NCBI GenBank assembly: GCA_049521795.1
Contig: JBEKOM010000002.1
Coordinates: 64,001-128,000, forward strand
Source: Candidatus Bathyarchaeia archaeon
GTDB lineage: Archaea > Thermoproteota > Bathyarchaeia > Bathyarchaeales > Bathycorpusculaceae
DNA length: 64,000 nucleotides
Direction of reading: 5' to 3'
In this document: piece by piece, positions 29,679-37,735 of the stretch
Numbering within the stretch: position 1 is the first letter of the stretch
Layout: every line of letters begins with the position of its first letter
Position numbers and translations under genes: made by a program
Notes under the pieces: generated by a model
What the model saw: only the letters and a program-made list of their open reading frames with translations
Told to the model about the DNA's origin: nothing
Databases searched by the model: none

Positions 29679-30092
29679 TTAGATCATCGCTTTGGGTTCT
29701 TCAATTCTTCGAAGGAAAGGACGCAAGACTGAGTGTGAGACATTTTCCTCTGGAGGTCCGTTCTTGAACATGCTTGGGGAGCCTATTTTTCTGCATATGA
29801 AGTTGAGGGAATCTTCTGTGAAGTTCAGTAGGCTTTGTCCCTCAGTTGTCAGTTTGTACACTTTTCTAGGTCTTTCGGTTGACATCTCCCAGTCGCTCTT
29901 AACGAACCCTTTCTTTTCCAATGTTCCAAGTAACGGGTAGATTGTGCTTGGCCCGAAGTAGACTCCAAACGTCTTGCGGATCTTGGTGATTATCTGGTAT
30001 CCGTGCATGGGCTGTCCGTTGAGGAACTGGAGTATTATGAGGTCTAGAAGACCTTTCATCAACTTTGTTTGGACTTCCTTTGAGTTGTTCAT
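29679..30092 (-). CDS. PadR-family transcriptional regulator
   Basis: KGLLDLIIL..MHGYQII..PSTIYPLL..RPRKVYKLT..G. Confidence 0.93.
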   Translation of the reverse strand: MNNSKEVQTKLMKGLLDLIILQFLNGQPMHGYQIITKIRKTFGVYFGPSTIYPLLGTLEKKGFVKSDWEMSTERPRKVYKLTTEGQSLLNFTEDSLNFICRKIGSPSMFKNGPPEENVSHSVLRPFLRRIEEPKAMI

Positions 30093-30156
30093 TTCGAACA
30101 CCTTTTCTTTTTCTCTTGTGTGCCTGTCCAACAGTTTGCCTGTTAGACGGGACTAC

Positions 30157-30340: not shown

Positions 30341-30667
30341 GTGGCGGATATCTTCAGAAAGGAAATTGTACAACGCATCACCAGAAACCTGCTCGACATC
30401 CAGGTTCTGAGGCTAGTTCAGACCGAACCCATGTGGGGCTACAAGATCAAAAAGCAGGCAGAAGCAAGATTCGGCGTAAGACTCCGACACGGAGCACTCT
30501 ATCCCCTTCTCAACGAACTTGAACAAGAGAGCTTCATAATAGGCCAAAACCAGCGACAAGGCGGAAGAAAAAGAAAAGTGTACCAAATCACTAGGAAGGG
30601 CGAAGAGTACTTAGAAGCGTACAAAAGCGTTCTAAAACAACAGTTAAAAGGAAACGACATGAGATAG
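30341..30667 (+). CDS. PadR-family transcriptional regulator
   Basis: PMWGYKI..HGALYPLLNELE..RKRKVYQITRKG. Confidence 0.92.
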   Translation: MADIFRKEIVQRITRNLLDIQVLRLVQTEPMWGYKIKKQAEARFGVRLRHGALYPLLNELEQESFIIGQNQRQGGRKRKVYQITRKGEEYLEAYKSVLKQQLKGNDMR

Positions 30668-30730
30668 GTTCTGCCTAGATGAGACTTATACTCTCCAGTT
30701 TCAAATATAACAAACAATAAGCATGAGACC

Positions 30731-31729
30731 ATGGGAACGAAGAAAAGTCAGGAAAAATCTGTAATGCTCATTGAGGAACTGAAAGGAAGAAGCAGCAAAG
30801 CACTCGAACTTGCAAAGAAAATAATTCTTGCTGAAAAAACACAGAGTGGAAAAGTGCTTGAAGCGTTAGAATATTACACTTTGCACTGGAACGACTTTAC
30901 TCATCCCGGTTTCTTTTCAATAGCATGCGAAGCCGTTGGCGCAGATCCAAATAGTGTTTTGCCAGTTCAAGTGGCCATAACGATGATGGCCGCGGCTTTT
31001 GACATTCACGACGACCTCATCGATAAATCAAGAACAAAACATGGAGTCCCAACGGTTTTCGGAAAGTTCGGAAAGGACATTGCTCTCCTTCTTGGCGACG
31101 CCTTTCTGATAGAAGGCTTTACGCTCTTGGATGAATCGATCGCCGAATTGCCTCGGGAGAAGATGAAAGAAGCTCTTGAAACGTTTAAGATGGCGCTTTT
31201 TGAGCTTGGCAACGCTCACGCCTTGGAGTTGGACATGAAGCTCAGGGGTGAGGTGCTGCCGAAGGCTTACATGCGAATCCTGGAGATGAAGGCGTCAAGT
31301 ATTGAAGCAGACATGAGGATTGGAGCCTTGGTCGGGGGAGGAACAAAAGAAGAAATTCAGACCCTAGCAGAACTCGGGAGGATTTTGGGCATGCTAGCCA
31401 CACTGAGGGAAGAGTTCGTAGATGTTTTCGAAGTCGAAGAACTGGAGAATCGCGTTCACAGTGAATGTTTACCGATACCCATCCTGTATGCAATGGAAGA
31501 CAAAGAGTCAGCGAGGACGATCGAAAAGTTGCTTGCAAAAAAAGGAATGGCTGGTAAGGACATTGATACACTCGTTGACATTATTTTCAACTCAGAGAGC
31601 GTCATGCGACTCAAGAAAAAGATGCGGGATCTTGTAGCCCGAGGCTTTCATTTGGCGTCGGAAATACGTAATAAGAACTCAGCCATACTACTGCGAAATC
31701 TTGCAGAATGCGCGCTTGAAGATCTTTAG
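30731..31729 (+). CDS. Polyprenyl-synthase-fold protein with degenerate IPP site and pseudo-SARM (ComQ-like candidate)
   Basis: FARM HDDLID intact; GGKRxR replaced by WNDFTHP, RRG by KHG, GQxxD by AHALE, SARM by REEFVD. Confidence 0.85.
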   Translation: MGTKKSQEKSVMLIEELKGRSSKALELAKKIILAEKTQSGKVLEALEYYTLHWNDFTHPGFFSIACEAVGADPNSVLPVQVAITMMAAAFDIHDDLIDKSRTKHGVPTVFGKFGKDIALLLGDAFLIEGFTLLDESIAELPREKMKEALETFKMALFELGNAHALELDMKLRGEVLPKAYMRILEMKASSIEADMRIGALVGGGTKEEIQTLAELGRILGMLATLREEFVDVFEVEELENRVHSECLPIPILYAMEDKESARTIEKLLAKKGMAGKDIDTLVDIIFNSESVMRLKKKMRDLVARGFHLASEIRNKNSAILLRNLAECALEDL

Positions 31730-31732
31730 AGT

Positions 31733-31783
31733 CTAAATCGGGTAAACTCTAACTGGAACGTTCCGTTTCTTTGCCTTCTTCAT
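31733..31783 (-). CDS. Putative 16-aa precursor or pheromone peptide MKKAKKRNVPVRVYPI
   Basis: ATG at 31783, TAG at 31733; GTGAGGGA SD-like site 5 nt upstream; TATA-like CTTAAGTA ~40 nt upstream; convergent with the prenyltransferase gene (3-nt gap). Confidence 0.6.
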   Translation of the reverse strand: MKKAKKRNVPVRVYPI

Positions 31784-31808
31784 CTCAATCCCTCACAAGT
31801 ATATGTGT

Positions 31809-31838
31809 ACGACAAGTGTACTACTTAAGGCTTGTCGT
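31809..31838. promoter_or_regulatory. 8-bp inverted repeat bracketing a TATA-like box between the peptide and MFS genes
   Basis: ACGACAAG-N14-CTTGTCGT; spacer contains TACTTAAG. Confidence 0.55.
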
Positions 31839-31907
31839 TGAACATTAATACAGAATGCTAATGAAGAAATGTTTTATCTCTAGACATCATCATTGCCTAA
31901 CGGGAGC

Positions 31908-33134
31908 ATGAAGATGCACCTTTCCGCACTCTTTGAGAGGAGGATAGCTTGGAGAGACTTTGCTCCATCGTTTGTTGTGGTGTTCAACAGTCTAGTTTGG
32001 TACATATTAGTCTCTGTCATGTTTAACAACGTCGTAAACAGCCTATCCCTTCCTGGTTATGAAACGCTGGGGATATTCTCTCTGCACTACGCAGGCGTTG
32101 CTTGCTCGGCTGTGGTAGGTGCGGCATTCTTCTCGCGGGCACGGAAGACTTACCTTGTGACATGGATCGCTGCCGGAGCACTTACGACAGCATTGTCGGC
32201 AACTATCGCGCACAATAGCACGCCAGTCAACATGGGACTCTCGCTTCTCCTAGGGATCTCGATCGGAGCTGGTCTTCCCTCGTCATTAGCCTATTTTGCT
32301 GATTCGACGTTCGTTGAAAACCGTGGCACCTACGGAGGAATAACTTACGCTGCTGTCGGCTTCACGGTCCTCGCTGTTGGGTTTCCGATAAACATGATCA
32401 ATAATGCTGTTCTAGCGTTTGCCATCCTTGCAATCTGGAGAGCGTCTGGTCTCGGCGCTTTCTTTCTTTCGCATGGTGGAATAGAAGACTCGTCAGAACG
32501 GAAGAATGTCGCGTACGGTTCTATTCTGCGCAGAAGAGATATCGTTTTGTACTTGATTCCGTGGATCATGTTCTCGCTTGTAAACTTTGCAGAGACTCCA
32601 ATATTGAAAGGGGTTCTTGGAGACTTCTACGATTTTGCATCGCTCGTTGAGGTTGCACTGTCCGGGATTTTTGTGCTGTTGGGCGGTTTCGTTGCGGACC
32701 TCACGGGCAGAAAGCGAGTCGTAATTACAGGCTTTATAGTATTGGGCATAGAGTATGCTATGCTTAGTCTCCTTTCTGGAATACCCATTTCTTGGTATGC
32801 GTACATAGTGCTTGACAGCTTTGCGTGGGGCATGTTTGCTTCAGTCTTCTTTATGACGTTATGGGGAGACCTTGCAGAAAACAATCAGAAAGACAAGTAC
32901 TACGCGTTGGGAGGACTTCCTTATCTCTTTGCCGGCCTTCTTCCCATTGTAGTCAAACCCTTCGTTGGCGCAAATCAAGCGGGAACGGCATTCTCTTTGG
33001 CCAGCTTCTTCCTGTTCTTGGCTGTCTTGCCACTGATGTACGCCCCCGAGACATTGCCTGAAAAAAAGATCAGAGAAAGGGAGCTGAAAGAATACCTTGA
33101 GAGAGCGAAGAAGACCAAGGAGAAATACGCTTAA
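31908..33134 (+). CDS. MFS-type 12-TM membrane protein
   Basis: About 12 hydrophobic helices, GFVADLTGRKR motif A, C-terminal APETLPEK and charged helix. Confidence 0.88.
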   Translation: MKMHLSALFERRIAWRDFAPSFVVVFNSLVWYILVSVMFNNVVNSLSLPGYETLGIFSLHYAGVACSAVVGAAFFSRARKTYLVTWIAAGALTTALSATIAHNSTPVNMGLSLLLGISIGAGLPSSLAYFADSTFVENRGTYGGITYAAVGFTVLAVGFPINMINNAVLAFAILAIWRASGLGAFFLSHGGIEDSSERKNVAYGSILRRRDIVLYLIPWIMFSLVNFAETPILKGVLGDFYDFASLVEVALSGIFVLLGGFVADLTGRKRVVITGFIVLGIEYAMLSLLSGIPISWYAYIVLDSFAWGMFASVFFMTLWGDLAENNQKDKYYALGGLPYLFAGLLPIVVKPFVGANQAGTAFSLASFFLFLAVLPLMYAPETLPEKKIRERELKEYLERAKKTKEKYA

Positions 33135-33166
33135 GGGCACGTCTGCTTCTTTTTGATGTGAAATCC

Positions 33167-34291
33167 ATGTTTTTCCATGTAATACTGACGACTGAATGCA
33201 ATTCGAAGTGTAGGTACTGTTACGGTGAGGCGTTGGAGGACATGGATGATGATTCATGGGAGGCTGAAGTTGATTATTCGTTACCACGAGAAATGAGCTA
33301 CGATGTCAGTGTGCTGGATAGGTTTTGCAGGCAAGATGCTGATTGTGTGGTGACGTTCTACGGCGGAGAACCGTTGCTTTGCACCGATCTGATCGGACGA
33401 GTCATGGACAATGTGACGGCCAAGCTTTTCATGATCCAAACGAACGGCTTGCTCCTAGACCGTCTTGAACCAAGTTATGTTAACCGTTTCCACACGATCC
33501 TCGTTTCGATTGACGGTGATGAAAGCCTAACTGATTTCTATAGGGGAGAGGGCACATTCAGGAAAGTTGTTGACAACCTGAAACTGATAAAGCACAATGG
33601 TTTCGAAGGGGAACTCATCGCTAGAATGACGGTTATGGAGAACACTGATATTTACAAACAGGTCAGATGGCTTCTAGAGAACGATGTGTTTCCTTTTTCT
33701 TCAATTCACTGGCAGCTGAACGCTGGATTCTGGAAGAACGATTATGCACGGAGGCATTTTAAGAAGTGGAGCGAAGAAAGCTACAACCCGGGCATACGAA
33801 AACTCGCCGAGTTCTGGGTTAATCATATGGAAGAGAAAGGTGCTGTCCTGCGGCTCTCTCCGTTGCTTGGCATTGCTCATTCCATTCTTTCAGGAGAAGA
33901 AGAAAGCCTCCTGCGCTGTGGAGGAGGATGGATAAACTATGCGATTCAGACTGATGGACACATCGTTCCATGTCCAACGATGTGGGGAATGAAGGATTAT
34001 TACCTGGGGCACATCAGCACTGCTGATCCTTTGAGACTAAAGAAAGTGTTTGTGGGCGAGCCGTGCACGAGGTGCAGTATTTTCAGGTCGTGTGGCGGCC
34101 GATGTTTGTATGCAAATGTAATGAAACGTTGGGGTTCTGAAGAGTACAGTCAGGTGTGCAAGACTGTGAAGAACTTGATCGGGGCCGTTTCGGACCAGTT
34201 GCCGAGGATACAGGAGCTTATTCATCATGGAAAAGTCAACTTGACAGATTTTGAATATACGAGGTACAATGGGTGCGAAATCATACCGTAG
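33167..34291 (+). CDS. Radical SAM/SPASM enzyme resembling the AF0577 (TIGR04084) putative peptide-modifying family
   Basis: CNSKCRYC, FYGGEPLL, QTNG, SIDG, SPASM Cys pattern CGGG..PCP..CTRC..CGGRC..C, terminal NGCEIIP. Confidence 0.85.
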   Translation: MFFHVILTTECNSKCRYCYGEALEDMDDDSWEAEVDYSLPREMSYDVSVLDRFCRQDADCVVTFYGGEPLLCTDLIGRVMDNVTAKLFMIQTNGLLLDRLEPSYVNRFHTILVSIDGDESLTDFYRGEGTFRKVVDNLKLIKHNGFEGELIARMTVMENTDIYKQVRWLLENDVFPFSSIHWQLNAGFWKNDYARRHFKKWSEESYNPGIRKLAEFWVNHMEEKGAVLRLSPLLGIAHSILSGEEESLLRCGGGWINYAIQTDGHIVPCPTMWGMKDYYLGHISTADPLRLKKVFVGEPCTRCSIFRSCGGRCLYANVMKRWGSEEYSQVCKTVKNLIGAVSDQLPRIQELIHHGKVNLTDFEYTRYNGCEIIP

Positions 34292-34465: not shown

Positions 34466-37400
34466 ATGGGAAAAACATTAACTGCTGAATTCGCTCTGAC
34501 GCTGTTGTTCGCAAGCATGCTGCCCTACGCTGTTTCCCTTCAGTCAGTCCGCTACGGCTTGGTGCAGAACCAGAACCCCCCACCTACGGTATGCTTGCAA
34601 CCGGATAATGTAACTGTCAAGAATGGCACAGTCTTTTCATTCAACGTCGTTATTGAAGATGTGCCGGCAGACCCTGGGATGGCGGGCGTTCAATTCACCC
34701 TCAGTTGGGACCCAACAATACTCAATGCCATCAACGTGACCGAGGTGATGTTCCACAACGTGACACCTCCATCTGAATGGAACAACATCTGGGCATTGAA
34801 AAACGAGGTCAACTACACGGCAGTATCCTACGCCTTCACATGGAGCGATATAAACCAAGCCCAGAGCGGGGGCTATTGTCCAATCTCTGGCAACTACACT
34901 TTGGCAACTGTCACAGTTGAGGCGATGGGAGTAGGCTCGACAACTTTACATTTTTCAAACCTGGTCGTGAGCGACCCAAACGCTCAAGTCTTAATATGCT
35001 CGCAAGATGTCCATCCTTGGCCGAACCCCCCCTTGCTGTCTAGCATCATAGTTGATGGCAACTTCAGTGTCTCAACAAGCTTTGGAACCATTCACATAAA
35101 GGCGGACGGAACCATTGCGCCGTCAACAGCGCCTATTCAGCGGATAGGAAACTATTACAAATTGACCGGAAGCATTTCGACAACGGCAGACGGAATCATA
35201 ATTCAAGAGAGCAACATTACACTCGATGGAAACGGTTATGCGATTCAAGGTGCGCAAGCCCAGAACTCTAGGGGATTGGACCTGTCGGGAATAACATCGG
35301 TGAAAATTCAAAACATGCAGATTGACGATTTCCCGTTTGGTGTGCGGCTTAGTTATTCTTCAGACAACAGTTTTTCAGGAAACGACTTGCAGAACAATGA
35401 TTACGGCATCTGGCTGGAATATTCCTCAGGTAACAGCGTTTCAGGAAATAACCTCACAGCAAACGGCGCCTCCGGCATCCGTCTCGATGTCTCTTCGGAC
35501 AACACAATTTGCGGAAACAGCTTGACGAACAGCGGAATTGCCATTTGGCTCGATCATTCTTCAAACAACAGTGTCTCCGAAAACAACGTCGCAGACAATT
35601 TTGGCGGCATCCTTCTCGCTGATTGCTCAAACAACAGCATTTCCAGGAACACCATGACAGCAAACAACGGATGGGGCGTTTCGCTCGAGTATTCCTCAAA
35701 TAACAGCGTTTCGGAAAACAACGTAGCAAACAACAGTGATGGCGTCGGGCTTACGCTTTCATCCAACAACACTATCTACCACAACAACTTCGTAAACAAC
35801 AGTCGCCAAGTTGTCATTGACTATGAATCAATGAATGTTTGGGATGACGGCTATCCTTCTGGCGGTAACTATTGGAGCAACTACGCGGGCATGGACCTGA
35901 ACAGTGGCCCAAACCAAGATCAACCTGGAAAAGATGGCTTAGGCGACACACCATACAGTACAGATTCAAGCAATAAGGACAGGTATCCGCTCATGACATC
36001 ATGGACAACGGGCGATTTCTCCATTTCGGTGTCCCCTTCTTCGCTTTCCATGAATCCAGGTGAATCCGCAAATTGCACTGTCACTCTAGCATCAATTGAA
36101 AATTTCTCCTCAGAAATATCTCTAAGTGCCTCTTCAGATCCAAGCATTGCCAGCGTAACGCTGACATTTGATTCAACTTCGATTAGTCTGGCGGCTGGAG
36201 TCTCAGCAAAATCGACGTTAATGATCAGCACCACATCGACAACACCATTGAACACATTCTCCGTAATCATCGCCGCAATAGGAGGAGGAAAAACAAGGAC
36301 AACCAATTTCACAGTCTCTTCAGAAGTGTCACTTGATGTGCCGTACCAAATCCAAGGGCAGACTAATTGGTCTGGCCCAGCTTCTCTTTCGATGGTTCTC
36401 AACTATTATAACGTTACATTCCATTCATGGGACTACGCGAACAGCACAGGCTTGCTCGCTTTCCGAGCAGATGAAGAAGCATCCGTCGCAGACCTTGTGT
36501 CTTTCATTAGAAAATACTACCCTGCTTTCAACGTAAAGATCGGAAATTACACTCTGAACGAGATACTATCAGCCCAAAACAACGTTGTCCTCGCAGACAT
36601 AGAGTCAAACTTGACAGCAGGGTACCCAGTAATATTGGAACTCGCAGGAATTCCAGGACATTTTGTTGTAGTCATAGGATTCAACAACACCGGGCTTTTA
36701 ATAAATGACCCAAGCGGGGCCTTCTTCACTGATCTACAGTATGGTAAGCCGGGTCGCCCAGTGACTCAAGGGCCATATTACCTTCACGACTTCGTCGAGT
36801 GGACCGACATTCAGATGTTCATCCAACAATACGAACACGATTTGATCCTTGGTGACCATAACACGATGCTGACCATTCAGAGTCCCAACGCAAACCCGTT
36901 GTCAGGAACTCTCGGCTTCAACGAAATACACTGGGGATCTACCAATATAGTGCTGGACAGAGGTATGCAATGGGTGCTTGACGAGCCTGTAGGACCACAA
37001 GACAAGTTTGGATTTTACATGTACGCATACAATTCACATAGCACGGAACAAGACTTCACCGTTTCAGTCAGCATCGTTGGAGACGACAACAAGACATACT
37101 CGACATTTGAGCAGAAACTCAACATCGAGGGTTACAACGGAGACTATTTCTGGAAACCTGAAAATGCTGTGGATCTATCCAGAAGTGAATACTACCGTCT
37201 CTACGTTGAGTTGAAAGACACACAAAACAAAGTGCTAGACTATTTCACGACGCCGAAGATTTACTACTTCAACAACGGTGTTTCCATAATTCTAAAAGAA
37301 AGCGAACATCATCTCTATTTGCACGCGTACGATTCTCAGGATCGCCACGTCGGACTCAGCTATTCAAACAACGAGACCGAGATCGACGTGCCCGACGCTT

Positions 37401-37735
37401 ACTATTTTGACGACTTAAACGGCACGATAACTGTGATTCTGCCCTCGTGGAATTCAAGCTGCCGAGCCGTGGTCGACGCCACTTTCGCTCAAGATGTAAT
37501 GGAAAGCTACAATCTCACAATTACAACTGTAAGCAATGGACAGACCGTAGACCAGAAACTCATTCAAGCAATCATCGAAAATGGAACCCGAAACGAGTAC
37601 AACATCACAATCTCCCAGAGCGGAACACTGATATCAGTGCCCGAGTTCCATTCACTCCTTGTTCTCTCAGTCTTCATGACAGCAACACTTTCAGCAGCGT
37701 TCGTCTTCAAAAAAAAGCGAACCATGAAGACATGA
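34466..37735 (+). CDS. Secreted multidomain surface protein: cohesin, NosD/PbH1 beta-helix, Ig-like, C39-like and PEF-CTERM
   Basis: Signal peptide; GVQFTLSWDP cohesin; GIxLxxSSNN repeats with WDDGYPSGGNYWS; VPYQIQ..SGPAS..GHFVVVIG..NDP; VPEF plus TM plus KKKR. Confidence 0.9.
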   Translation: MGKTLTAEFALTLLFASMLPYAVSLQSVRYGLVQNQNPPPTVCLQPDNVTVKNGTVFSFNVVIEDVPADPGMAGVQFTLSWDPTILNAINVTEVMFHNVTPPSEWNNIWALKNEVNYTAVSYAFTWSDINQAQSGGYCPISGNYTLATVTVEAMGVGSTTLHFSNLVVSDPNAQVLICSQDVHPWPNPPLLSSIIVDGNFSVSTSFGTIHIKADGTIAPSTAPIQRIGNYYKLTGSISTTADGIIIQESNITLDGNGYAIQGAQAQNSRGLDLSGITSVKIQNMQIDDFPFGVRLSYSSDNSFSGNDLQNNDYGIWLEYSSGNSVSGNNLTANGASGIRLDVSSDNTICGNSLTNSGIAIWLDHSSNNSVSENNVADNFGGILLADCSNNSISRNTMTANNGWGVSLEYSSNNSVSENNVANNSDGVGLTLSSNNTIYHNNFVNNSRQVVIDYESMNVWDDGYPSGGNYWSNYAGMDLNSGPNQDQPGKDGLGDTPYSTDSSNKDRYPLMTSWTTGDFSISVSPSSLSMNPGESANCTVTLASIENFSSEISLSASSDPSIASVTLTFDSTSISLAAGVSAKSTLMISTTSTTPLNTFSVIIAAIGGGKTRTTNFTVSSEVSLDVPYQIQGQTNWSGPASLSMVLNYYNVTFHSWDYANSTGLLAFRADEEASVADLVSFIRKYYPAFNVKIGNYTLNEILSAQNNVVLADIESNLTAGYPVILELAGIPGHFVVVIGFNNTGLLINDPSGAFFTDLQYGKPGRPVTQGPYYLHDFVEWTDIQMFIQQYEHDLILGDHNTMLTIQSPNANPLSGTLGFNEIHWGSTNIVLDRGMQWVLDEPVGPQDKFGFYMYAYNSHSTEQDFTVSVSIVGDDNKTYSTFEQKLNIEGYNGDYFWKPENAVDLSRSEYYRLYVELKDTQNKVLDYFTTPKIYYFNNGVSIILKESEHHLYLHAYDSQDRHVGLSYSNNETEIDVPDAYYFDDLNGTITVILPSWNSSCRAVVDATFAQDVMESYNLTITTVSNGQTVDQKLIQAIIENGTRNEYNITISQSGTLISVPEFHSLLVLSVFMTATLSAAFVFKKKRTMKT

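Follow-up and report, generated by a model that had tools for sequence, protein, structure and literature searches.

A 16-codon open reading frame (ORF) on the minus strand of a 64,000-nucleotide stretch of DNA from a Candidatus Bathyarchaeia archaeon (contig JBEKOM010000002.1, positions 64,001 to 128,000; the whole stretch is called the window below) is, judging from its conservation in related genomes, a real micro-gene that annotation has missed so far, and it belongs to a family of such genes, 12-23 codons long, that extends across the Bathyarchaeia. It lies between a gene for a polyprenyl-synthase-like enzyme and a gene for a transporter of the major facilitator superfamily (MFS), has its own conserved promoter and varies between strains together with these two neighbours. 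We infer that it may encode the precursor of a peptide on which the prenyl-transferase-like enzyme acts and which the MFS protein exports, in a system resembling ComQ/ComX, a reading to which we give a little less than an even chance.

Conservation, coding signature and promoter of the micro-gene

31733..31783, minus strand: micro-gene of 16 codons plus stop, recognised from the sequence and from conservation in syntenic and named loci

The 16 sense codons ran from an ATG at 31783-31781 to a TAG at 31735-31733, the same position, strand and translation (31783..31733, minus) with which the ORF had been proposed from the letters of the window. The ORF sat in a 178-nt spacer (31730-31907) between the polyprenyl-synthase-family ORF (30731-31729) and the MFS ORF, divergent from the latter and convergent with the former, and the two convergent stop codons were 3 nt apart, as had been noticed at the outset. 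The peptide consisted of a polybasic N-terminal leader followed by an invariant P-[VIM]-R and a variable tail of four residues, which contained Tyr and Pro and no Trp.

Taken alone, the ORF does not rise above chance. Of 5000 mononucleotide shuffles of the spacer (179 nt as shuffled), 66% contained an ATG ORF of 16 codons or more in some frame (44% for the minus strand alone), and the original prediction had itself cautioned that 16 codons can arise randomly. The 2.44-Mb genome held 1417 Lys/Arg-rich ATG ORFs of 10-26 codons, equal to 0.29 per kb per strand, and just six Lys/Arg-rich ORFs in it fitted P-[VIM]-R with 2-8 residues to the end. What lifts the micro-ORF above chance is its conservation at the same place in relatives.

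We searched 61 related genomes with the synthase-like protein and found a paralogue (best E <= 1e-36) in 36 of them, from which 30 loci were retrieved. One ended straight after the enzyme gene and was left out, giving a syntenic set of 29 loci, in all of which the enzyme gene was followed by a spacer of ~160-650 nt and then by an ORF of ~400 residues on the same strand. The rule asked for an antisense ORF that starts with ATG, has 10-26 codons and holds four or more Lys/Arg among residues 2-12; such an ORF occurred once per spacer in 28 of the 29 loci and in 0/29 on the other strand, compared to a mean of 1.93 and a maximum of 6 of 29 in 300 shuffles of the spacers. The original prediction had tied its fate to conservation in syntenic relatives, and here it held. 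The sole miss was locus L022, where a family-like ORF overlapped the 3' end of the enzyme gene by 27 nt. An earlier and stricter form of the rule, which also called for an aromatic residue within the final six positions, had picked out 22/29 loci; the aromatic requirement was dropped because clear relatives lacked such a residue.

When the first Asp-rich motif of the enzyme family was scanned against a set with one genome for each prokaryotic species, 222 relatives emerged, and all counts for named loci rest on the best 80 of these 222. The 80 were all labelled Bathyarchaeia or Bathyarchaeota except three (Caldiserica, Acidoferrum, Thermoproteota), which were taken as mis-binned or more broadly labelled contigs. 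The choice of Bathyarchaeia as the taxon in the original prediction was thus correct. The strict rule was satisfied in 64/80 named loci, with 61 of those 64 ORFs being family-like. Re-checking of 19 loci with a relaxed motif, which was set post hoc after the data had been seen, showed a family-like ORF in 16, which either began at a codon other than ATG, had a less basic sequence or overlapped the enzyme gene; with this motif two of the 19 loci had no family-like ORF at all, and L060 held a remnant that lacked a start codon. Since the genomes are related, their loci are not independent of each other, and all these counts overstate the number of independent observations. The L060 remnant (L060:4993-5320), from a genome of the same family, was a decayed copy in which the frame of the basic leader was recognisable, the start codon was gone and GC-rich sequence replaced the promoter region, with the enzyme, MFS, PadR and radical SAM genes intact.

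Codon-level conservation, proposed originally as a check, was found in a peptide-guided codon alignment built from the 14 nearest family members. Pairwise differences averaged 0.33, 0.29 and 0.55 at codon positions 1, 2 and 3, the pooled pN/pS (ratio of non-synonymous to synonymous differences) was 0.38, and all length differences in this peptide-guided alignment fell between codons with the frame preserved. Four different codons encoded the invariant Pro, and AGA, AGG, CGA and CGG the invariant Arg. At distant loci the DNA was beyond alignment and the amino-acid pattern was still present, as would suit a translated gene rather than a non-coding element.

Among 74 distinct peptides, 66 carried a motif of a small hydrophobic residue or Pro, a small hydrophobic residue and Arg, mostly P-[VIM]-R, and these 66 were 12-21 residues long. 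The part preceding the motif Arg was 54% Lys/Arg, while the tail after it was hydrophobic and 3-8 residues long (mode 4), with Pro in 27/66 and a charge in 9/66. The tails were mixed in their aromatic residues, with Trp in 29, Tyr without Trp in 13, Phe only in 13 and none in 11; Trp was thus absent in 37/66 and both Trp and Tyr in 24/66. Cys was present in 2/66 peptides. The tail was the hypervariable part, and the same-genus genomes G000, G001 and G002 each had a different one. The division of the peptide into a basic leader and a hydrophobic part, described originally for the window alone, was kept across the Bathyarchaeia along with place, strand and frame.

The following elements were located upstream of the micro-gene and at the two PadR-family genes on the far side of the enzyme gene.

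31791..31794, minus strand: GAGG of Shine-Dalgarno type (-11 to -8 relative to the ATG), by match to the 16S 3' end
31806..31814: proximal TGTNNNACA palindrome, operator-like, between the TATA-like box and the expected start, by motif match
31822..31830, minus strand: TATA-like box CCTTAAGTA at -47 to -39, with a palindromic core CTTAAG
31836..31844: distal copy of the palindrome, imperfect at its last base, 30 bp from the proximal copy
29679..30131, minus strand: PadR-family regulator 1, a candidate repressor (PF03551)
30341..30667, plus strand: PadR-family regulator 2, whose gene immediately precedes that of the synthase-like enzyme

Across 70 distinct loci we compared the 80-110 nt that precede the start codon. 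A GGAG/GAGG-type word was present in 66/70 and clustered at -15 to -10; since the 16S rRNA of the genome ends in ...CCTCCT, the GAGG of the window is a plausible Shine-Dalgarno site. TATA-like words (CTTAAG, CTTATAAG or CTTTTAAG, of a CTTWWWAR type) started at -50 to -41 in 41/70 loci, preceded by an A-rich stretch and placed between two palindrome positions. Both elements that had been announced for the window, an SD-like site and a TATA-like box at a suitable distance, were recovered, as GAGG at 31794-31791 (with CCTCC carried by the 16S 3' end) and as CCTTAAGTA at 31830-31822. The palindrome TGTNNNACA was found in 69/70 upstream regions (shuffles: mean 2.0, maximum 5) with preferred starts at -65 to -60 and -35 to -30 and a modal spacing of 30, and in the window an exact 8-nt inverted repeat (31809-31816 / 31831-31838) bracketed the TATA core. 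By these comparisons the micro-gene has a conserved promoter of its own, composed of a TATA-like box between two TGTNNNACA palindromes plus a Shine-Dalgarno site. In archaea the TATA box has its centre ~26 nt before the point where transcription begins, which places the expected start near 31800. Such a start would be expected to leave a short leader holding the Shine-Dalgarno site, and the proximal palindrome would lie where a bound repressor would block initiation.

A palindrome of the same type, TGTCCAACA, was located at 30125-30133, at the 5' end of padR1 in the divergent PadR1/PadR2 spacer, and a TGTNNNACA-type palindrome was present in this spacer in 31/37 loci (shuffles: mean 3.5, maximum 11). 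The PadR proteins are the presumed ligands of these palindromes. As a mark of a window-wide regulon TGTNNNACA was unconvincing beyond the locus, with 24 matches compared to 15.6 expected and 3/100 shuffles reaching 24. The commonest TGTNNNACA-type nine-mers were only 2-3 times enriched genome-wide: TGTTGAACA and TGTTCAACA together occurred six times in the window (6920, 7242, 9700, 13566, 14591, 31981) and 48 times in the genome, compared to ~19 if composition were uniform. A wider regulon may include the operator-like palindrome. One more ORF was considered as a family member, on contig C4 (C4:53670-53714, minus strand), the only other ORF in the genome that resembled the family; it was Lys-rich with P-V-R and a Trp-containing tail, and was set aside as probably due to chance, having neither a TGTNNNACA pair nor a TATA-like word upstream and no synthase paralogue nearby.

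At the other end of the micro-gene, a 10-nt inverted repeat (31726-31752; 90% complementary, 7-nt loop) straddled the stop codon of the synthase-like gene and overlapped the last codons and stop of the micro-gene, and this hairpin may be a shared two-way terminator. The Lys codons of the micro-gene formed a T-rich tract on the plus strand directly after the enzyme stop.

The synthase-like enzyme, the transporter and the hypervariable cassette

30731..31729, plus strand: accessory polyprenyl-synthase-family protein of 332 amino acids, convergent with the micro-gene (PF00348)
31908..33134, plus strand: MFS transporter of 408 amino acids from the first ATG, divergent from the micro-gene (PF07690)
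30693..33132, no strand assigned: hypervariable cassette of synthase-like gene, micro-gene and MFS gene, from identity to genome G002
33158..34291, plus strand: radical SAM/SPASM protein (TIGR04084; 314 bits, cut-off 225)

The neighbour that the original prediction called a prenyltransferase was identified as a polyprenyl-synthase-family protein (PF00348, 80.3 bits) in which the motif that binds isopentenyl diphosphate (IPP) was absent, which would fit a transferase acting on another acceptor. Across 16 listed NCBIfam families none of the equivalog cut-offs was approached, the best score being 100.5 bits against a cut-off of 468 (IdsA). The closest solved relative of the enzyme was a geranylgeranyl diphosphate (GGPP) synthase (1wy0; E 5e-38 with the family profile), with a weaker match to the indole prenyltransferase Ord1 (9v4g; E 3e-24). 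In the alignment to 1wy0 the GGKRxRP position was occupied by a stretch without Lys or Arg (K, R and R all replaced) and the RRG after the first Asp-rich motif lacked its first Arg, with DDxxD intact and a second motif of EExxD. Among 29 aligned members D94, D95, D98 and D231 were invariant, the first (GGKRxRP) motif had no basic residues and the second motif was [DE][DE]xxD; it was thus acidic (EExxD, or DDxxD in some members), but the FQ that precedes it was replaced. The other paralogue in the genome (contig C12) had all canonical motifs, GGKRxRP and RRG included. The basic residues of GGKRxRP and RRG hold the diphosphate of IPP in chain-elongating synthases, and because these are lost and the Asp-rich motifs are kept, the synthase-like paralogue would be predicted to bind an allylic diphosphate but not IPP.

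The enzyme had an accessory distribution (36/61 related genomes) and evolved fast. The enzyme of the window was nearest to that of a different genus (G034, 58%) and not to those of its own genus. A geranylgeranyl-reductase-like flavin adenine dinucleotide (FAD) oxidoreductase was encoded near the synthase-like gene in 8/80 loci (e.g., L002:305-1387 and L013:242-1387), where it replaced or accompanied the PadR pair. From these reductase-like neighbours, the prenyl group of the module may be partly saturated.

The MFS gene was the most constant neighbour, lying downstream of the enzyme gene in 20/20 wide loci and in 63/63 named loci with at least 3 kb of downstream sequence, and PF07690 was detected in the window protein and in 8/8 relatives tested. 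A PadR pair was found upstream in 42/70 loci. The stop codons of micro-gene and enzyme were mostly 0-50 nt apart in relatives, with a distance of 146 nt in L028 and an overlap of 4 nt in L029. No match to the PADLOC defence models was obtained for the enzyme, the MFS protein or either PadR protein at E <= 0.001. A translation of the MFS gene that was out of frame by one base still matched the orthologous genes of relatives when used as a tblastn query (E to 3e-34); conserved DNA alone can therefore yield convincing-looking protein matches.

The enzyme gene, the micro-gene and the MFS gene formed a block that differed markedly between close relatives. When compared to the same-genus genome G002, nucleotide identity was 50-70% within 30693-33132 and 91-96% in the flanks (NAPRTase and PadR genes on one side, the radical SAM gene on the other). 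Protein identities to G001 / G002 were high in PadR1 (0.96 / 0.98) and in the radical SAM protein (0.89 / 0.87) and much lower in the enzyme (0.51 / 0.55) and the MFS protein (0.58 / 0.56). In 12 genomes with all four genes (66 pairs; one PadR1 was a fragment), the identities of enzyme and MFS protein co-varied with a rho of 0.80, whereas with the radical SAM gene rho was 0.19 for the enzyme and 0.01 for the MFS protein, and the radical SAM gene followed PadR1 (rho 0.70). This looks like the replacement of whole cassettes among old and very divergent alleles. In G001, a 131-residue N-terminal remnant of a window-type synthase (L033:3516-3908; 84% identical, with one in-frame TGA) lay just upstream of that genome's own full-length allele (51% identical), and two short N-terminal fragments of the radical SAM gene (L033:6446-6641) followed the MFS gene ~1.8 kb before the intact gene. 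These remnants look like scars of cassette replacement.

Possible functions of the peptide

In the mechanism we favour, the peptide would be the substrate of the convergent polyprenyl-synthase-like enzyme and would take the place of IPP as acceptor of the prenyl group, as suggested by the motifs for Mg and the allylic diphosphate that are kept and the IPP-holding basic residues that are lost. The divergently transcribed MFS protein would export the lipidated peptide, and PadR-type regulators would repress the micro-gene via the palindromes, which are found at the padR1 promoter too. Enzyme, peptide tail and transporter diversify jointly as one cassette between otherwise near-identical strains, a pattern expected of a strain-specific signal (pherotype) or of an antagonistic lipopeptide with an exporter/immunity function. 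Enzymes of the synthase fold that prenylate an adjacent small peptide are known from ComQ/ComX, PalQ/PalX and StheQ/StheX (PMC10853753; bioRxiv 10.64898/2026.08.29.745113; PMC13290415).

When the peptide was co-folded with the enzyme (the latter with its alignment), the score was 0.36, compared to 0.02 for the best of three controls, with a predicted local distance difference test (pLDDT) value of at least 57 for the partner and agreement between runs in at least 94% of contacts. In the calibration the mark was reached by 58/80 solved complexes and by 2/110 mismatched pairs; at scores of 0.60 or below it was reached by just 7/80 solved complexes and by both of the passing mismatches, and the calibration contained no chain shorter than 30 residues. 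The modelling thus lends weak support to a pairing of enzyme and peptide.

This weakness is one of several points that count against a prenylated peptide. All characterised synthase-like peptide prenyltransferases act on Trp (PMC13290415). The window peptide has no Trp and neither have 37/66 family tails; Trp prenylation cannot hold family-wide because 24/66 tails have neither Trp nor Tyr, and no single aromatic acceptor can serve the family since 11/66 tails have no aromatic residue and the rest are mixed. If the family shares one chemistry, the acceptor might, speculatively, be something invariant such as the Arg or a terminus, for which we know of no precedent in the fold of this enzyme. 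The second motif was acidic ([DE][DE]xxD) and not the N-D pseudo-motif in the available descriptions of the ComQ family, the enzyme sequence was nearer to the GGPP synthase 1wy0 than to Ord1, and the loss of the IPP site is deduced from motifs. The geranylgeranyl-reductase-like neighbour (8/80 loci) would also fit a purely lipid pathway, and the co-variation of enzyme and MFS protein may result from linkage alone.

The prenylated-peptide reading can be carried further, to a class-wide and strain-polymorphic system of peptide communication or antagonism in the Bathyarchaeia, in which a peptide of 12-23 residues would be lipidated by a repurposed polyprenyl synthase on an acceptor other than Trp, exported by a co-evolving MFS protein and controlled by PadR repressors, with its alleles acting as 'pherotypes'. 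In this full form it seems rather unlikely. If the pherotype reading were true, neither a ribosomal lipopeptide signal nor kin discrimination by peptides would have been described in Archaea before, and prenyltransferases of the synthase fold would gain a new acceptor chemistry.

The peptide of a real micro-gene could instead go unmodified, either as an MFS-exported signal of the SHP/ComS kind or as a micro-protein that tunes the MFS protein or the enzyme, while the enzyme makes a strain-variable isoprenoid of its own. We consider this unlikely but well worth weighing, as conservation, coding signature and promoter apply to it equally and the 24/66 tails without a nucleophilic aromatic residue pose no difficulty for it. 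An enzyme with an acidic second motif and true synthases as its closest solved relatives would suit an isoprenoid product, as would the geranylgeranyl-reductase-like neighbours in 8/80 loci, but the absence of the GGKRxRP and RRG residues makes an ordinary synthase role doubtful. The MFS protein is the sole universal partner besides the enzyme, which agrees with export or tuning; transporter-binding micro-proteins known so far span the membrane, however, for which 12-23 residues are too short. The stop-to-stop placement of the micro-gene with the enzyme gene, at 0-50 nt in nearly all loci, and, weakly, the co-folding score (0.36 compared to 0.02 for the best of three controls) favour an enzyme-peptide pair over an unmodified peptide.

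An improbable alternative is that the micro-ORF is a cis-regulatory device, whose translation or antisense transcript sets the expression of the enzyme or the MFS protein and whose peptide has no function once released. The ORF ends 0-50 nt from the enzyme stop on the opposite strand, so that read-through would be antisense to the enzyme gene, the Lys codons make up the T-rich plus-strand tract just past that stop, and the promoter region is a shared and symmetric divergent control region. Purifying selection on the amino acids (pN/pS 0.38), with Pro and Arg kept via synonymous codons, is not what such a device would call for, and attenuation would have no downstream gene on the same strand to act on, only the antisense of the synthase-like gene. 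Some arrest peptides have Pro near the end, and Pro is frequent in the last residues here (27/66 tails), but the stop-proximal part, which is key in known arrest peptides, is the most variable part of this family.

It is very improbable that the peptide is the substrate of the radical SAM/SPASM enzyme, to be cross-linked or modified like precursors of the PqqE/MftC/PapB type. The protein scored 314 bits against TIGR04084 with weaker matches to many peptide maturases, its gene lay downstream of the MFS gene in 51/63 loci, and it was well conserved, like the P-[VIM]-R part of the peptide. The gene was, however, present in 45/61 relatives, including genomes without a synthase paralogue, and in seven genomes with both it lay at a great distance from the paralogue or on a different contig. 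None of 14 radical SAM loci with no paralogue nearby had an MFS gene, PadR gene or family-like micro-ORF, and conversely G030, G042 (99% complete) and G044 had the enzyme and the micro-ORF and no radical SAM match. Because loci were split in both ways, the micro-gene can be said to travel with the enzyme and MFS genes and not with the radical SAM gene. Radical SAM identities followed the species backbone (rho 0.70 with PadR1) and not the cassette, and Cys was found in just 2/66 peptides. On the separate loci, the micro-ORFs missing from them and the identity correlations, the radical SAM protein was rejected as a dedicated partner; its gene is probably part of a conserved backbone (radical SAM, MazG, MiaB, FtsZ) that usually adjoins the module. 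Between the radical SAM and MazG genes the window encodes a 1089-residue protein (34466-37735, plus strand), predicted to be secreted or anchored, with a cohesin-like N-terminus, NosD/beta-helix repeats and Peptidase_C39_2. It was present at this place in the window only, related loci having the two genes close together or other inserts, and as a C39-like leader protease it was rejected, being non-syntenic with one weak match in 63 loci.

Least probable of all is that there is no gene and the ORF is incidental to non-coding DNA that is itself conserved (promoter of the MFS gene, operators, T-rich terminator of the enzyme gene): ORFs of this size are common by chance in shuffled spacers and in the genome, the whole spacer is conserved at the nucleotide level above the flanking genes and the Lys-rich codons complement the T-rich tract after the enzyme stop, but frame, start and stop were kept in 28/29 loci with length changes in whole codons of the peptide-guided alignment, variation was biased to third positions with four codons each for the invariant Pro and Arg, the amino-acid pattern survived where the DNA could no longer be aligned, and the Shine-Dalgarno word kept a fixed distance from the ATG while the other strand had 0/29 such ORFs.

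Standard gene callers apply a length cut-off, which is 90 nt in Prodigal, and genes of 12-23 codons fall below it, leaving the family invisible in the current annotation of an abundant, uncultured class of sediment and soil archaea. Should the peptide be modified by the enzyme, peptide prenylation by the synthase fold would extend from a few bacterial lineages to Archaea and to a new kind of substrate, a very short precursor that often has no Trp, and Archaea would acquire a peptide, its alleles specific to strains, as a candidate for a signal or a weapon, so that peptide-based social behaviour could be tested directly with two or three cloned genes. Whatever its function, the locus shows cleanly how an allelic cassette can stay hypervariable between genomes that are nearly identical, and it offers a well-defined promoter/operator architecture for PadR-type regulators in Archaea.

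Comparison with known systems

A literature search of abstracts and listings returned no archaeal system of this kind and nothing on TIGR04084. Peptides comparable to the family in gene size are the streptococcal SHP/Rgg and ComS/ComR pheromones, which have genes of ~17-35 codons that are missed by gene callers, a basic N-terminus and a hydrophobic, often Trp-Trp, C-terminus. SHP/ComS genes lie beside their regulator and are strain-variable; their products are unmodified, carry a hydrophobic export segment, leave by an ATP-binding cassette (ABC) exporter and act on regulators of the tetratricopeptide-repeat (TPR) type. The Bathyarchaeia micro-genes share the tiny gene, the basic N-terminus, the hydrophobic C-terminus, the place beside a regulator and the strain variability, whereas they have no export segment, always adjoin a synthase-like enzyme and are accompanied by PadR-type regulators.

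Precursors of the PqqA, MftA and ranthipeptide kinds are likewise encoded by tiny ORFs beside a radical SAM/SPASM gene, with reactive C-terminal residues. The micro-gene resembles PqqA/MftA in being a tiny and easily missed ORF near such a gene, but it does not follow the radical SAM gene once this is separated from the synthase-like gene. With the GGPP and farnesyl diphosphate (FPP) synthases the enzyme shares fold and family (PF00348), the first DDxxD and an acidic second motif; it differs from them in the loss of GGKRxRP and RRG in all 29 members, in scores below the NCBIfam cut-offs, in its accessory distribution and in its constant company of micro-gene and MFS gene.

The nearest analogy is with ComQ/ComX, PalQ/PalX, StheQ/StheX and the P domain of ChrPC, which also have an enzyme of the polyprenyl-synthase fold with its first Asp-rich motif kept, beside a small ORF. 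As in ComQ/ComX, the variable C-terminal end of the peptide would be the part acted on. In comQXPA the comQ and comX genes and the 5' part of comP form a polymorphic block, and here too enzyme, peptide and an adjacent membrane protein make up a polymorphic block between conserved flanks. The differences lie in the archaeal host, in a peptide of 12-23 residues compared to the 55-73 given for the ComQ/ComX class, with no long leader domain, and in genes that are convergent here and co-directional there. By published description the second motif of the ComQ family is an N-D-x-x-x pseudo-motif, compared to the acidic motif found here (bioRxiv 10.64898/2026.08.29.745113). The Trp acceptor is described as lying near the C-terminus in that family, whereas the window peptide has no Trp and 29/66 tails contain one, and the histidine kinase and response regulator of the ComP/ComA and PalP clusters have in their place an MFS protein and two PadR regulators. 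Set against these published descriptions we do not class the Bathyarchaeia system with the ComQ family, from which it departs in the N-D motif, the Trp acceptor and the kinase partner, while sharing with it an enzyme of the same fold beside a small ORF and a polymorphic block of enzyme, peptide and membrane protein.

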